A stretch of 64,000 nt of DNA from Minisyncoccia bacterium. Its GTDB lineage: Bacteria > Patescibacteriota > Minisyncoccia > Phycocordibacterales > UBA918. Under the pieces are notes generated by a model, which saw nothing but the letters and a program-made list of their open reading frames with translations, made no database searches and was not told the origin of the DNA. The DNA lies in the NCBI GenBank assembly GCA_041750655.1, contig JBGSYZ010000013.1:4769-68768 (forward strand), written 5' to 3'. Position numbers and translations under genes: made by a program. Shown one piece after another: positions 29,830 through 55,129 of this stretch (the first letter of the stretch is position 1; every line of letters starts with the position of its first letter).

Positions 29830-30903
29830 TTAGATACCTTCCAGTTGGAGTTCCTCTATAAGCTGCTTAGCCTTACGAGACAGCTTTTGGGGCATATCGA
29901 TGGAAATCTTGACCATGAAGTCGCCGCGGCGGCCATCTTGTGGGACACCCTTCCCTTTTATGCGTAGGGACTCACCATGTTTTACACCAGCTGGAATTTT
30001 GATATCAACTGAGCCGTCTAAAGTTTCTACGTGGTAGGTGCTACCGAGTAACGCATCAGATAGTTTTAAGTGCAGTGGTGAGATAAGATTATTACCCTCA
30101 CGCTTGATACTAGGATGTGGTTTAACGTGAATCTTTACGTACAAGTCGCCGGGTTGACCGTGTGGCATGGCTTCACCGCGACCGGTCATACGAATCATTT
30201 CACCGTTTTGAATACCAGAGGGAATATTGATTGCTATTTCTTCTTCACCGCGTTTAATGCCAGTGCCAGCACAATCGCCGCAACGGTCTTTAGGAATTTT
30301 TCCAGTCCCACGACAGGCAGTACATTCTCTGACAGTTTGGAAGCTACCCATAACACTTTGACGAACTTCCCGTACACGTCCTTTTCCATTACAGGTTTTG
30401 CACTCAGTTTGTTCAGTACCAGGTTTGGCACCAGAACCGTCACATGTGGCGCACATATTATTTTTGGTCAGAAGAACCTTGCGAGTCATACCAAACACAG
30501 CATCTTTAAAAGACAGTTCTATATCGATAGAAATATCCCGACCACGAGCTTGTTGTTGGCGATCACCACCAAACCCAAACTGTTCAAAGATGTCACCGAG
30601 ATCGAATTCAAAACCACCACCTTGTCCTTGCGCTTGGGCAAAATCTTGCCAAGAAAAACCACCAAAGCCACCACCTGGTTGACCACCACCAGCGTTTTGA
30701 TAGGCGTGACCATAGGTATCGTACTCAGCTTTCTTTTTATCATCAGATAAAACAGCGTAGGCTTCGCTAATTTCCTTAAACTTGGCTTCGTCACCAGTTT
30801 TTTTATCAGGATGATACTGAGCGGCCAACTTTCGAAAAGCCTTTTTCACTTCGTCTTTATTGGCGCCTTTTTCAAGACCAAGAATTTTGTAGTAATCCTT
30901 CAT
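29830..30903 (-). CDS. dnaJ: chaperone DnaJ
   Basis: J-domain with HPD (YHPDKK), G/F-rich linker, four CxxCxGxG zinc-finger repeats. Confidence 0.9.
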   Translation of the reverse strand: MKDYYKILGLEKGANKDEVKKAFRKLAAQYHPDKKTGDEAKFKEISEAYAVLSDDKKKAEYDTYGHAYQNAGGGQPGGGFGGFSWQDFAQAQGQGGGFEFDLGDIFEQFGFGGDRQQQARGRDISIDIELSFKDAVFGMTRKVLLTKNNMCATCDGSGAKPGTEQTECKTCNGKGRVREVRQSVMGSFQTVRECTACRGTGKIPKDRCGDCAGTGIKRGEEEIAINIPSGIQNGEMIRMTGRGEAMPHGQPGDLYVKIHVKPHPSIKREGNNLISPLHLKLSDALLGSTYHVETLDGSVDIKIPAGVKHGESLRIKGKGVPQDGRRGDFMVKISIDMPQKLSRKAKQLIEELQLEGI

Positions 30904-31062: not shown

Positions 31063-32976
31063 TTACACTTTCCCTTCTTCTGGAGTATCTTTCTTCACTT
31101 CTTCAGCGTCGCGGACTGGGTTTTCTTCAGTAGTCTGTTCTGCTCCCGCGGCTGCTTGGCCTTCAGCACTACTAGCCGCCTTACTCATTGCTTCACCAAT
31201 CTTTTGGGTAGCAGTTGAAAGCGCTTCAGTAGCAGTTTTAATAGCAGCGATATCTTCCTTGTCTTTCACTTCTTTAAGGGCAGAAAGCTTTTCTTCCACT
31301 TCCTTCTTTACATCATCTCCAATCTTGTCACCATAATCTTTTAGAGATTTTTCAGAAGTGTATATGAGTTGGTCTGCTATATTACGTGCTTCAATCACTT
31401 CTTTCTTCTTCTTGTCTTCGTCGGCGTGGGCTTCCGCGTCTTGTTTCATTTTTTCAATATCTTCTTCAGACAGGCCGGAGTTAGCTTCAATACGAATCGA
31501 CTGTTCTTTACCAGTTGATTTATCTTTTGCTTTTACATTTAACACACCGTTACTATCGACGTCGAACGTTACTTCAATTTGTGGTACACCACGTGGCGCT
31601 GGTGGAATGCCATCGAGCACAAACTTACCAAGTGATTTATTGTCAGCAGCCATTGGGCGCTCACCTTGAGTAATGTGAATTTCAGTTGAAGTCTGATTGT
31701 CGGCAGCGGTAGAAAATACCTGCTCTTTCTTTGTTGGAATGTGGGTGTTTTTTTCAATTAGTTTAGTCGCTACTCCACCCATGGTTTCGATACCCAGTGA
31801 CAATGGAATAACGTCTACCAAAGTAATATCTTGCACATCGCCTTGGAAAATACCGGCTTGGATAGCTGCACCAAGCGCTACCACCTCGTCTGGGTTTACA
31901 TTTTTATTTGGCTCCTTACCAAATAAATCCTTTACCGCTTTTACAATTGCTGGCATGCGAGTTTGGCCACCTACCAAAATCACTTCATTAATCTCGGCTG
32001 GTTTCATTGATGAGGCTTCTAAGGCTCGTTTGATAATCTCGATTGATTTATCAATGTATGGTGCTGCTAGTTCTTCTAATTTCGCTCGGGTCAGTTTGAT
32101 AAGCATATGCTTTGGACCTTCAGCTCCAGAAGTAATGAATGGAATGTTTACTTCTGTATCTACTGAAGAGGACAGCTCAAGCTTGGCCTTTTCAGCTGCT
32201 TCATCAAGCCGTTGTAGTGCTAAGGAATCTTTACCAAGATCAATTCCTTCAGACTTCTTAAATTCAGCAATCAGGTAACGAACAATTTCTTGGTCAATAT
32301 CTCGTCCACCCATATGAGCGTCACCGTCGGTTGATTGTACTTCTACAACGTCATCCCCAACTTCGAGCACGGTCACGTCGAAAGTTCCACCACCGAAGTC
32401 ATATACTACTATCTTCTCGTCTTTCTTTTTGTTAAATCCATACGAGAGTGCCGCCGCTGTTGGTTCGTTAATGATTCGTCGTACGTTGAGTCCAGCAATC
32501 TTGCCTGCGTCTTGTGTAGCTTTGCGTTGGGCGTCATTAAAGTACGCCGGCACCGTAATAACTGCTTCGGTTATAGTCTCACCTGTCTTGGCTTCAGCAT
32601 CAGCTTTAAGCTTAGAAAGAATCATGGCTGATACTTCCTCAGGACGATAATCTTTATCACCCATAGTGACCATCGCTCCACCGTCACTCCCCTTCTTTAC
32701 TTCATACGGCACGATCTCTTTGTCTTTCTGAACCGCAGCTTCGTCAAAATTATGACCCATGAAGCGCTTAATACCGTAAATAGTATTCTTAGGGTTGGTT
32801 ACTGCTTGTCGTTTAGCTATTTGTCCCACCAGTCTTTCGCCGGTTTTAGAAATAGCCACCACTGATGGTGTGGTTCTGGTTCCTTCTGCGTTTTCTATAA
32901 TTTTTGGTTCACCGCCTTCGATGATAGCCATCGCTGAGTTGGTTGTTCCTAAATCGATTCCTAAAATTTTTGCCAT
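31063..32976 (-). CDS. dnaK: chaperone DnaK (Hsp70)
   Basis: [17 protein letters not shown]…, DLGGGTFD, 637 aa. Confidence 0.95.
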
Positions 32977-33086: not shown

Positions 33087-33683
33087 TTAGGGTGAGGTAA
33101 ATTCTCCTACCATAACCCGAGCCGGGCGTATTACGTCTGTCGATCCATTATCTTCCATGGTATAGCCAGGTTGAATGACAGTAATAATTTTATGGTGTTC
33201 CGCTTCATTAGTAACCGGAACATTTCCCATGGCGTCATGTAAGTTTGGATCAAATTCTTCACCAATTGGGTTAATGGTTTTGACTTTATGTGATTGTAAT
33301 ACTCCTTGTAATTGAGTAAAGATACTCTCTACTCCCTTGCGCCAGACTTCATCGACATTATTCCAAACCTCCTTGTTATTCATGGCCATATGGAAACTGT
33401 CGCACAATGGCAGCAATTCCTCTATGAAATGAATAGAAGTTCTTTTTTTATCTTTGAGGCGATCTTCCTCCATTCGTTTTCGAGCGTTGAGGAAATCGGC
33501 TTTGGCCCGTTGAAGCTCTTCTAGGTTGGTAAGTTTATCAGCTTCGCACTTCTTTAATTTATCTCGTAATTTTTTAATCTTGTCTCCAGCCTGCATTTCA
33601 GCATCTTCCAAATCAATGTCGTCACTGGAAACTGTGTCTTCAAATTCAATGTTATCTTCGATTGTTTCTTCTTTATCTAACAT
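33087..33683 (-). CDS. grpE: nucleotide exchange factor GrpE
   Basis: Coiled-coil N-terminus and conserved C-terminal GEEFDPNLHDAM region; operon with dnaK-dnaJ. Confidence 0.85.
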   Translation of the reverse strand: MLDKEETIEDNIEFEDTVSSDDIDLEDAEMQAGDKIKKLRDKLKKCEADKLTNLEELQRAKADFLNARKRMEEDRLKDKKRTSIHFIEELLPLCDSFHMAMNNKEVWNNVDEVWRKGVESIFTQLQGVLQSHKVKTINPIGEEFDPNLHDAMGNVPVTNEAEHHKIITVIQPGYTMEDNGSTDVIRPARVMVGEFTSP

Positions 33684-33692
33684 AGCTACAGT

Positions 33693-33722
33693 ATTATAAA
33701 TTTAATTTTTACTTCTGTCAAA
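33693..33722 (-). promoter_or_regulatory. sigma70-type promoter TTGACA-N18-TATAAT for grpE-dnaK-dnaJ (near-leaderless)
   Basis: Minus-strand TTGACA (plus 33717-33722) and TATAAT (plus 33693-33698); grpE ATG at 33683. Confidence 0.55.
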
Positions 33723-34025
33723 GTTTAAAATATTTATGTTCTACTTCACTTTTTTACGCTTCTCAACATTATTACATTTTATACATACATTTTTGTTGCC
33801 AAAATGATATTATTTTAGTACCCGCTCTTTGGTGGGGTGTTAGGAGGAGAATGCTCATTGTAGCTTCCTCTACGAACATGTTTTGAATCAAAGTAATACT
33901 CTCTACGTGTATTGCTTACATACCAAGCTTTCTACACTAGACGGTATGTCACTCCAACAAACCCATGTTGGTTTAGGTCCTGGAGGTAGGACTGGAGCAC
34001 ATGATTTAGTCTAGTAGAACACATA

Positions 34026-34050
34026 GCCCAGGTTTATCCTGGGTTTTTGT
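34026..34050 (+). terminator. plus-strand intrinsic terminator with no upstream ORF
   Basis: CCCAGG-TTTA-TCCTGGG followed by TTTTTGTGT. Confidence 0.6.
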
Positions 34051-34130
34051 GTACCCCCCTACTACTATTTTAAAGAAATAGAGCTAGGAAAGACCTGGTT
34101 ATAATTTATAAAACATATTTTTAAAAAATC

Positions 34131-34165
34131 TAGATTGCAGAAGAAACATCAGGTGTGTATAATGT
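34131..34165 (+). promoter_or_regulatory. sigma70-type promoter TTGCAG-N17-TATAAT
   Basis: TTGCAG 34131-34136; 17-nt spacer; TATAAT 34154-34159. Confidence 0.5.
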
Positions 34166-34225
34166 GTGAACCTTTAGCTTACGTTGGAGGTAAAATGATA
34201 AGAGTCTCCGGACACTTATCGGCTG

Positions 34226-34252
34226 CAAAAAATCCCGCTTGCGGGATTTTTT
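34226..34252. terminator. bidirectional intrinsic terminator
   Basis: AAAAAATCCCGC-TTG-GCGGGATTTTTT, a perfect palindromic A-tract/stem/U-tract. Confidence 0.75.
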
Positions 34253-34351
34253 GTTTGTATAGGAAAAGGCGCCGCGATGCGGCGCCTTGGTGAAGTCGAA
34301 ACTACTAAGTCGACTTCTCTTTAGGAAACACACAGTTCTGGATAAATTTGA

Positions 34352-34576
34352 TCATGCCGGCTTTGGCAATGTTAGGGTTTCTGTTCCAGAATGTTTCCAT
34401 CTCAGCTTTGCTTGTGCCGATGTCTTCATCGGTCGCATTTTACCCAAGATAAATTTGACTGAACTCAGTACCATCCAAGCGTCAATCTGACTTTCCTCGG
34501 AAGTGTTCCCAGCACGAAGTTCAGCGACACAGTTCTTGAAGGACGCTACTAGCCCTTCTTTGCCTTCGTCAATCAT
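34352..34576 (-). CDS. small hypothetical protein (74 aa) with good SD
   Basis: GGAGGA 7 nt upstream of the ATG; followed by two GC-rich hairpins at 34268-34325. Confidence 0.45.
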   Translation of the reverse strand: MIDEGKEGLVASFKNCVAELRAGNTSEESQIDAWMVLSSVKFILGKMRPMKTSAQAKLRWKHSGTETLTLPKPA

Positions 34577-34640
34577 TTGCTTCCTCCAAAAAACTAAAAA
34601 TATTATACTTATATTAAGTGTTTTGTCAATTCAATATTTA

Positions 34641-34672
34641 AAACAAAAAAACGAAGCAAGTGTGCTTCGTTC
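34641..34672 (-). terminator. intrinsic terminator of the ribosomal-protein operon (after rpsI)
   Basis: ACGAAGCA-AGTG-TGCTTCGT hairpin; on the minus strand it is followed by TTTTTTTGTTTT. Confidence 0.7.
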
Positions 34673-34689
34673 CTTCGTTTAGTATTACG

Positions 34690-34705
34690 AAACGTAATTA
34701 CGTTT
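34690..34705. repeat. 16-bp perfect palindrome AAACGTAATTACGTTT
   Basis: Direct reading; sits between the rpsI stop and its terminator. Confidence 0.6.
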
Positions 34706-34781
34706 GTTTCCACCTAGCCCTGGTTCGCCATCAAGGCTCACATCGGGCTTCCTGCCTGGAGGCAGGACCAGAGCAAACGCG

Positions 34782-35183
34782 TTAGCGTTTGCTCCAAGCT
34801 CCTCGCTTCCGAGCCTTCTTAAGTCCAAATTTCTTTCGTTCCACTGAACGTGGATCACGCATAAGGAAGCCTAGTGATTTTAGGACACCACGTCGCTCTC
34901 CTTTCTCTTTAACTAGAGCTCGAGCGATACCAAGTCGAATTGCTTCTGCTTGTGATGATAACCCACCACCTGAAACTTTAGCAGTAATAGTGTAGGTACC
35001 TACACCCGCTTCGTCAACTCCTAAAACAGAATTAATATCCTTATTGTGTGACTCGTGTGCAAAATATTCCTCAACTGGTTTTTCGTTAACCACAACAGTA
35101 GTGGCTTTAGCTGGAGTAATGCGAACTCGAGCAGTTGAAGTTTTTCGTCGGCCGATGCCTTCTGTGTATTTTTCAGTTGCCAT
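34782..35183 (-). CDS. rpsI: 30S ribosomal protein S9
   Basis: C-terminal …GLKKARKRGAWSKR. Confidence 0.9.
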   Translation of the reverse strand: MATEKYTEGIGRRKTSTARVRITPAKATTVVVNEKPVEEYFAHESHNKDINSVLGVDEAGVGTYTITAKVSGGGLSSQAEAIRLGIARALVKEKGERRGVLKSLGFLMRDPRSVERKKFGLKKARKRGAWSKR

Positions 35184-54103: not shown

Positions 54104-55129
54104 TTATTCAGCCACTATGTACGAACCGTTTGGTAATCGTTTGAATAGTGCAGCATCTTGTAAGTTTACAACTATGGTGTTGTCTTTTACATACCGCTCT
54201 TTACGAACCTTGTCGATGATTTCTTCTCGAGATAGTGGACCGTGCTTTTCTAGGATGTCTCGTAAAACTTCCTTTACAACACCAGCGGAGTAGCCCCATT
54301 CCGACAATGCATAGAGACCACGGCCTACCAATACAAAGCGTTCGTCTTTAATAAGTTCATTGTGAGTGGTGGCAGTGTGAGCTTTCTTGTTAAATAATTC
54401 AGCAATAGTTTCGGCAACTTCCTTGAAGTGCATTGGCGAACCATGTCGCTTTACTGCGAGGTATGCATAATCACGGATTCCCTTTACTCGCACGTTAGGA
54501 CTTGAAGACGGTCCCCACTCACCAAGTGGATTACGACTTATTTCTTTTGAAATCAATAACCACCGCTTTAGAACTTCGTCATCATACTTATTGGCAATAT
54601 CAATGAGGTTCTCACGGAAACGGTGTAGAATTTCTTCCTCAGATACTAGTTCATCTTCGCTTAATGTTTTGTACACACTTTTGAGTGCTTGTTCAACTGA
54701 GTCAGCGATCTTTCGTTCTGTGTACCAACGATGAGTGTACGCTGGGTTTTCTTTACTGCGATAGAAAGGATCTCCAAGAACCAATAAAAAGAAAATGTGA
54801 TTCCGAACAATTGGATCTTTAGTGATTTCTTCAAGCAATACATGTTCAGCAATGACACCACCACCTAAAGCATCTATCGCTTGGTGTAGTTCATCAAACA
54901 CGGCTGTAAACTCTTGGTACACATCAGATTTTTGGATGGATTGAATTCCGTAGTTTTCAATCTGACGCACTCGCTCTCGAGTCACGCCGTAGCTTTGACC
55001 AATAGACTCTAAAGTGTGAATCTGACCATCAGCACCAAGTCCAAAACGACGTTCTAGAACATCGCGGGCTCGGTCTGGCAACGCAGACAACATTTTTTTA
55101 CTAACTTGTTTTGGTTTAAAAGTAATCAT
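54104..55129 (-). CDS. fusion protein: N-terminal sigma70 region-4-like HTH + C-terminal HARE-HTH-like domain
   Basis: LPDRARDVLERRFGL…TLESIGQSYGVTRERVRQIE (sigma region 4.2 pattern); C-terminal MHFKEVAETIAE…RFVLVGRGLYALSEW (HARE-HTH pattern, as in RpoE delta). Confidence 0.5.
   Translation of the reverse strand: MITFKPKQVSKKMLSALPDRARDVLERRFGLGADGQIHTLESIGQSYGVTRERVRQIENYGIQSIQKSDVYQEFTAVFDELHQAIDALGGGVIAEHVLLEEITKDPIVRNHIFFLLVLGDPFYRSKENPAYTHRWYTERKIADSVEQALKSVYKTLSEDELVSEEEILHRFRENLIDIANKYDDEVLKRWLLISKEISRNPLGEWGPSSSPNVRVKGIRDYAYLAVKRHGSPMHFKEVAETIAELFNKKAHTATTHNELIKDERFVLVGRGLYALSEWGYSAGVVKEVLRDILEKHGPLSREEIIDKVRKERYVKDNTIVVNLQDAALFKRLPNGSYIVAE

Follow-up and report, generated by a model that had tools for sequence, protein, structure and literature searches.

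In many Gram-positive bacteria, hrcA is found immediately upstream of grpE. Members of the Candidate Phyla Radiation (CPR; Patescibacteria) have tiny genomes and little characterised RNA biology. Here, we analysed the region directly upstream of grpE in a 64-kb stretch of DNA from a Minisyncoccia bacterium (64,000 nucleotides of contig JBGSYZ010000013.1, hereafter the window), where a gap of ~670 nt next to grpE (positions 33684–34350) is predicted to hold two non-coding RNA genes, Unit 1 (33818–34052, ~230 nt) and Unit 2 (34169–34257, ~86 nt), both on the plus strand. In its position directly upstream of grpE this locus resembles the HrcA/CIRCE arrangement; however, it carries neither a CIRCE repeat nor an HrcA-like remnant, and the elements conserved here are encoded opposite to grpE and behave as RNAs.

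The two units share a number of features with trans-encoded small RNAs (sRNAs), for example the Hfq-independent ones of Firmicutes. Both appear as free-standing intergenic genes in the size range of 80–250 nt that have a sigma-70-type promoter and end in an intrinsic terminator, lack a conserved open reading frame (ORF) and are conserved within a narrow clade. They differ from this group in that conserved helices are far more numerous in Unit 1 than in a typical base-pairing sRNA, and in that the host belongs to an uncultured CPR lineage for which our literature searches returned no characterised sRNAs. The same searches found no description of these two RNAs, nor of lineage-specific structured RNAs in Patescibacteria. 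Unit 1 is also similar to orphan structured non-coding RNAs, examples of which are the raiA motif and the sets of motifs described by Weinberg et al (2017; PMC5737381): it is ~230 nt long, composed of multiple covarying helices, has invariant loops and lacks a neighbouring gene as a possible target of cis control. It differs from these RNAs in its much narrower distribution and in having no match in Rfam 15, and the text of Weinberg et al (2017) contains no mention of grpE, dnaK or rpsI. A further likeness is to the CsrB/RsmZ sponges, which present GGA motifs at hairpin tips, as do the P6 hairpin of Unit 1 (GGAGG) and, in closer relatives, the SL2 loop of Unit 2 (CCGGA). However, the units hold one or two such motifs against the many repeats of the sponges, and the SL2 loop is UUCG in L012 and L014 (labels L002–L027 denote related loci in our comparison set). 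The two units would represent two new RNA families, familiar in kind, from a rare uncultured CPR lineage.

Two candidate RNA genes upstream of grpE

At the sequence level, both units display the hallmarks of free-standing sRNA genes, namely their own promoter and intrinsic terminator on one strand, no conserved ORF and covarying structure. Each would be transcribed from its sigma-70-type promoter to its terminator as a separate transcript. The Unit 1 promoter, which had not been named in an earlier note on this DNA, is located just upstream of the unit and consists of an extended −10 element (TGaTATTAT, 33805–33813, plus strand, read from the sequence) with a weak −35 element. All eight aligned lineages keep the pattern TGnTAnnAT, which in the distant L012 and L014 is accompanied by CTGACA 17 nt upstream. 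The transcription start is predicted at ~33818–33820. The unit ends in an intrinsic terminator spanning 34019–34052 on the plus strand, in which the stem CCCAGG/CCTGGG (34027–34043) is followed by TTTTTGTGT. The earlier note had read this part of the plus strand as a hairpin-rich stretch running into a clean terminator; the terminator was recovered both in the sequence and by the terminator scan, and the stretch before it is predicted to adopt a conserved multi-helix fold.

The promoter of Unit 2, TTGCAG-N17-TATAAT, occupies 34135–34163 of the plus strand (read from the sequence) within the motif TCTAGATTGCAG, which is conserved in all eight lineages with Unit 2. This near-consensus promoter had been proposed before and is real, but its coordinates had been given as 34131–34159, and its −35 hexamer matches the consensus at only three of six positions in the window. 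The corresponding promoter in L012 and L014 reads TTGTCA...TATACT, with five of six matches in the −35 hexamer. Transcription is predicted to start at ~34169–34171. At the other end of the unit, a perfect 13-bp inverted repeat (34226–34253) forms an intrinsic terminator on both the plus and minus strands, in agreement with the earlier description of a ~85-nt unit ending at a perfect bidirectional terminator.

We compared this locus with those of nine further lineages, which were collected through graded GrpE homologues and show 55–92% GrpE identity. The closest named GrpE homologues carry Kaiserbacteria or “Patescibacteria group” labels and share ~53% identity. Wherever the contigs of these nine lineages extend as far as rpsI, this gene is followed by 0.4–1.5 kb in which no more than one or two small unannotated ORFs occur, and then by grpE-dnaK-dnaJ. 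Lineages at 60–92% GrpE identity retain the arrangement rpsI, variable slot, Unit 2, Unit 1 and grpE-dnaK-dnaJ. In L019/L020 (57% GrpE identity), four other genes separate rpsI from grpE. The ~600 nt nearest grpE show 79–86% identity to the window in the five closest lineages. In lineages at 60–65% GrpE identity, two blocks can still be aligned and they correspond exactly to Unit 1 and Unit 2, whereas the DNA between the units and past Unit 2 is variable, with many indels. The inter-unit spacer (34057–34130, no strand assigned) retains only 20–66% identity in relatives where Unit 1 retains 95–98%, and 45–66% in the five lineages compared below, which marks Unit 1 and Unit 2 as separate conserved blocks. 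Excluding its terminator, Unit 1 of the window is 95–98% identical to that of five lineages in which the grpE coding DNA is 75–88% and Unit 2 84–93% identical. Unit 1 therefore evolves more slowly than the neighbouring protein gene, and we argue that both units are under purifying selection.

Members of the Unit 1 family occupy the rpsI-grpE position in lineages down to ~60% GrpE identity, and the architecture is recognisable at 55–63%. The covariance model of Unit 1 found a single copy in the window and one per locus. In L027 (63% GrpE identity) it scored 147 bits; here, the rpsI-grpE interval is only 414 nt long (L027 304–717) and holds Unit 1 alone, having no Unit 2, no small ORF and no rpsI 3' element. 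L017 matched the full model with 20 bits (E ~2e-4) under default filters, and with filters off gave a partial match of 13 bits. Unit 1 of L016 was recognised by eye only, through GUGGGAUGUU, ACGAAC..UUGAA and the GGAGGUA loop; its layout, also assigned by eye, runs from a P1 hairpin ending in GUGGG through AUGUU, an ACGAAC-closed hairpin, a long-range helix of UGAAC/GUUCA and the GGAGGUA loop to a terminator. The covariance model found no Unit 1 in L019 or in three Saccharibacteria loci. L027, L016 and L017 carry Unit 1 (in L016 by eye only), but no Unit 2 was found in any of them, which suggests that Unit 2 is younger or more dispensable.

Conserved structures of the two RNAs

The plus strand of 33800–34055 folds more stably than expected from its composition (z = −3.7; none of 200 shuffles was as good), and the minus strand gave z = −2.1. 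Invariant G·U pairs, together with the promoter and the T-tail, fit the plus strand and assign the Unit 1 RNA to it. RNAalifold applied to eight distinct Unit 1 sequences returned a consensus of 72 pairs, 14 of them with compensatory changes, and adding L027 as a ninth sequence raised the latter number to 21. Cells of the alignment form a standard pair in 97.2% of cases, compared with 31–41% when the partners are slid by one to three columns. Pairs changed on both sides numbered 15 against 5.7 ± 1.7 in shuffled alignments, a value that none of 500 shuffles reached.

The consensus fold of Unit 1 is composed of two 5' hairpins followed by a multi-branched domain, all on the plus strand. The invariant 5' hairpin P1 (33821–33836) is directly followed by P2 (33837–33879), a long second hairpin. 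A long-range helix pairing 33883–33890 with 34002–34009 would then close the domain that contains P3 (33891–33917), P4 (33918–33949) and a three-way junction (33952–33997) holding P5 (33959–33974) and P6 (33977–33992). The outer stem of P2 occurs in three complementary versions that were identified by eye, AGGAGG/CUUCCU in the window, UCGAG/CUCGA in L014 and CCAAG/CUUGG in L027, and these were only partly registered by the automatic alignment. The loop of P3 is CU-rich and invariant (CUCUCUACG), and the tip of P6 bears GGAGG, which is retained even in L016 and L017. In this model, the folded domain would present the CU-rich loop and the GGAGG-tipped hairpin to a partner. The two loops, whose columns vary in one sequence only, are also complementary to each other (UCUCUA with UGGAGG), and P3 and P6 could form an internal loop-loop (kissing) contact instead of binding a partner.

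Unit 2 is predicted to be a small RNA of three hairpins. Its 90-nt plus-strand sequence folds with z = −6.25, and RNAalifold identified 31 pairs, seven of them compensatory. As many compensatory pairs were seen in 12 of 500 shuffles and as high a covariation score in none of the 500; 98.3% of cells are paired, compared with 38–52% when slid. The 5' stem-loop SL1 (34170–34192, plus strand), ACCUUUAGC-UUAC-GUUGGAGGU, is almost invariant across the alignment. It follows the pattern ACCUU..AGC-UUAC-GUUGG.AGGU, in which changes at the four variable pairs affect a single side and leave the pairing intact throughout, and it is the likely functional part of the RNA. SL2 (34196–34221, plus strand) is a covarying hairpin whose stem changes from GAUAAG/CUUAUC to GUGGGG/CCCCAC across relatives, and the third hairpin, the terminator, shows three compensatory pairs.

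With both units kept, and bearing compensatory changes, in seven to eight other lineages, the conservation check proposed in the earlier note came out in favour of its central claim of two ORF-less transcription units encoding candidate sRNAs: promoters, terminators and helices are all conserved. These data support the view that both units are independent, ORF-less non-coding RNA genes on the plus strand, transcribed away from grpE.

Weighing the alternatives and the possible roles of the RNAs

A number of known RNA and DNA element types were considered and rejected. Neither terminator is followed by a plus-strand gene, the next gene (34352–34576) being convergent, so neither unit can be a leader, an attenuator, a riboswitch or a thermometer. 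RNA thermometers of the ROSE or fourU type are further excluded for grpE by the location of both units on the opposite strand and by the ~9 nt between the grpE −10 hexamer and the ATG. A role of Unit 2 as a dedicated type I antitoxin was rejected because lineages that keep Unit 2 either lack the convergent small ORF or have one from any of at least three unrelated families. Searches of phage records, plasmids and viral contigs returned no DNA similar to either unit, which speaks against a mobile-element or phage origin.

One objection would be that the units are not RNA genes at all, and instead represent genes for small proteins, the decayed remains of hrcA or of another gene, or neutral intergenic DNA in which terminators occur by chance. 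A 39-aa ORF does cover Unit 1 on the minus strand and was called as a 46-aa gene in L004–L007, and Unit 2 contains a Shine-Dalgarno sequence and an ATG that open a 32-aa ORF. The longest ORFs of the gap measure 39–52 aa, are not conserved as proteins (the product reads MFVEEATMSILLL in the window and MFVRVGSSEPCLD in L014) and are broken by 1-nt indels that are tolerated over the units. The earlier note had described the Shine-Dalgarno sequence and AUG as embedded in a stem; the elements themselves are present (GGAGGT 34186–34191, ATG 34195–34197, GATAAG/CTTATC 34197–34202/34215–34220), but the AUG is not conserved. It is lost in four of eight lineages, being ACG in L004, AAG in L011 and GGA in L012 and L014, and hence is not a conserved translation start. 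No HrcA or other Pfam family matched any of the six frames of 33684–34351 at E values up to 1, which bears out the earlier statement that these ~650 bp lack coding capacity and means that one of the refutations proposed there, a degraded hrcA, did not materialise. Identity above that of the neighbouring coding gene, combined with compensatory changes, is also unlike the evolution of a pseudogene or neutral DNA. We consider this reading largely refuted and highly improbable.

It is scarcely more probable that Unit 1 is a highly divergent housekeeping RNA (6S, signal recognition particle (SRP), RNase P or tmRNA) that Rfam models miss. Such an RNA would account for a constraint stronger than that on a chaperone gene and for one copy per locus in a reduced genome, which would be expected to hold few RNAs, and no recognised RNA gene was found anywhere in the window: Rfam 15 gave no match at the gathering score, and ARAGORN found neither tRNA nor tmRNA. 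However, an Rfam search of 33600–34900 and five related loci with lax filters and E up to 10 returned only scattered terminator-like matches, none on the body of Unit 1 and none recurring between homologues, so the Rfam check suggested in the earlier note assigned neither unit to a family. The fold of Unit 1, a chain of hairpins with a multi-branch domain, does not correspond to 6S RNA, which forms a rod around a central bubble, and no 6S family was matched. The SRP models likewise gave no match at E up to 10, and inspection by eye revealed neither a GGAA/AGCA-type arrangement nor the SRP domain IV motif, a helix with a GNAR tetraloop and conserved symmetric and asymmetric loops, nor the P4 and conserved-region sequences of RNase P. 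The distribution of Unit 1 is moreover limited to a narrow clade, and the three Saccharibacteria loci lack it.

For the relationship to grpE, the arrangement of its promoter is relevant. A promoter scan identified TTGACA-N17-TATAAT on the minus strand (33721→33693) with 12 of 12 matches; it is divergent from Unit 1, lies outside the RNA genes and has hexamers conserved in all aligned relatives. The earlier note had given the perfect hexamers correctly but an 18-nt spacer, which is in fact 17 nt. Only 9 nt separate the end of TATAAT from the ATG (33683), an arrangement shared by close relatives, and the proposal that the grpE mRNA is leaderless or nearly so is plausible. L014 (3778–4000) has ~85 extra nt between the grpE promoter and the ATG.

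One or both RNAs could in principle control grpE-dnaK-dnaJ in place of HrcA/CIRCE, through pairing with the mRNA or titration of a regulator. All lineages with Unit 1 have it in divergent orientation beside grpE, including L027, where the rest of the rpsI-grpE interval has been lost. As had been claimed, the usual control elements appear to be missing: CIRCE (TTAGCACTC-N9-GAGTGCTAA) had no match with three or fewer mismatches in the window, and none of the 13 scanned window ORFs of 331–392 aa, the matching size range, is hrcA, all of them encoding other proteins. These 64 kb are the part of the genome that was examined, and hrcA or another regulator may lie elsewhere. Adjacency is the sole argument for this role, and the whole rpsI-grpE order is conserved anyway. 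Both RNAs are encoded opposite to grpE with their own promoters and no transcript overlap, the apparently leaderless grpE leaves little 5' untranslated region as a target, and the duplex search revealed neither stand-out complementarity to the start regions of grpE, dnaK or dnaJ nor any conserved complementarity to grpE or dnaK. For Unit 2, the link is further weakened by L027, which retains grpE-dnaK-dnaJ and Unit 1 without it. Regulation of the heat-shock operon is therefore unlikely, and the other option raised in the earlier note, sRNAs unrelated to this operon, is the better reading.

A different partner is suggested by a 31-nt direct repeat, in which 33979–34009 of Unit 1 recurs at 34755–34785, just past the rpsI stop codon, with 24 of 31 positions matching. 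Since rpsI is transcribed from the opposite strand, this repeat makes the Unit 1 RNA and the rpsI 3' untranslated region (UTR) complementary. Residues 33979–33999 might act as an antisense to the rplM-rpsI transcript by pairing with its hairpin at 34755–34775 (minus-strand RNA) and altering its stability or termination. The duplex in the window spans 21 contiguous bp (18 Watson-Crick and three G·U), compared with a maximum of 18 in 200 shuffles, and complementarity is also found over 19 bp in L011 and over 15 bp plus more in L004, making three of seven lineages in all. The GGTCCTGCCTCCAGGCAGGA hairpin occurs only once in the window, which rejects a dispersed repeat as the origin of the match. 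However, complementarity is absent from L003, L008, L012 and L014, where the Unit 1 sequence is the same, and the complementary hairpin of L011 is located elsewhere. The segment of Unit 1 is moreover fully base-paired within P6 and the junction helix, and both partners are hairpins built on GGUCCUG...AGGA, so that the match is partly palindromic in origin. We consider an antisense role of this kind improbable.

The six conserved helices of Unit 1, its invariant 5' hairpin and its invariant loops favour a structured-RNA role over that of a simple antisense. The explanation that we consider rather probable as a whole is that the locus holds two independent non-coding RNA genes, of which Unit 1 would be of a ribonucleoprotein type acting in trans and Unit 2 a small trans regulator. 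Unit 1 would exert its function by binding a protein or the ribosome; taken separately, its assignment as a trans-acting ribonucleoprotein RNA is made with low confidence. For Unit 2, a small trans-acting regulator is the most likely role. In a more specific form, which we put forward only tentatively, Unit 1 would constitute an undescribed lineage-specific class of structured RNA, under stronger constraint than the chaperone gene and part of a ribonucleoprotein, that possibly docks to the ribosome or an RNA-binding protein via the CU-rich loop and the GGAGG hairpin and might also touch the rpsI transcript in some lineages.

Several observations weigh against this explanation. When duplexes were sought with the 144 start regions of the window, which represent a small part of the genome, no target stood out for either RNA; RNAduplex against long transcripts gave only long, interrupted duplexes, which are uninformative. 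In the consensus fold, GGAGG is partly within the stem of P6 and may not be exposed. The Unit 1 alignment comprises only nine distinct full-length sequences at about four levels of divergence, so that few independent events underlie its covariation statistics. Moreover, the lineage carrying the RNAs is rare: a GrpE-based scan of species-representative genomes returned only three loci, from metagenome-assembled genomes labelled Saccharibacteria (42–49% identity), with neither Unit 1 nor Unit 2, and a scan of metagenome contigs with the 5' motif returned only three loci, all duplicates of known types.

Neighbouring elements and significance

The genes surrounding the gap are all on the minus strand, with dnaJ (29830–30903), dnaK (31063–32976) and grpE (33087–33683) on one side and a small ORF (34352–34576), rpsI (34782–35183), rplM, rplQ, rpoA, rpsD, rpsK and rpsM on the other. 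Despite this ribosomal-protein operon, the window is without a tRNA or an Rfam family at the gathering score. The small ORF encodes 74 aa with no Pfam match and has its own perfect promoter (TTGACA-N16-TATAAT, 34629→34602). No homologue was found in the same slot of relatives, which holds at least two other unrelated small-protein families or nothing, and 34352–34640 appears to be a variable small-gene slot between conserved RNAs. A GC-rich hairpin on the minus strand at 34266–34291, outside both RNAs, was read from the sequence as GGCGCCGC-GAT-GCGGCGCC followed by TTTTCC. It is conserved in L002, L003 and L008, has another sequence in L004 and L011, gave only terminator-like Rfam matches in E-value mode and probably terminates transcription of the convergent small ORF.

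Directly after the rpsI stop, the minus strand contains a third element with a conserved structure (34680–34797). It is composed of a hairpin that includes the stop codon, GGAGCAAACGC-UAA-CGCGUUUGCUC, another hairpin and a stem around GAUG...ACCA, followed by ARGWGGGAA, and in the window it is followed by a minus-strand terminator (34641–34680). The same architecture with different sequences was observed in six lineages, and no Rfam family was matched. This element could be a 3'-UTR element or a 3'-UTR-derived sRNA.

L003 and L008 are identical beyond Unit 2, including a 100% identical small protein, and differ on the grpE/Unit 1 side, a pattern that points to a chimeric metagenome scaffold or recent recombination. 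Elsewhere in the window, a 341-aa protein (54104–55129, minus strand) contains Sigma-70 region 4 and HARE-HTH domains, an unusual combination.

The value of these RNAs is modest, as they join many orphan RNA motifs, come from a rare lineage and have no unusual mechanism in sight. Unit 1 is the more interesting of the two because of its size, structure and constraint, and offers a concrete candidate for metatranscriptome mapping and covariance-model searches. Being better conserved than grpE and retained in the stripped interval of L027, Unit 1 is probably important to the cells that carry it.

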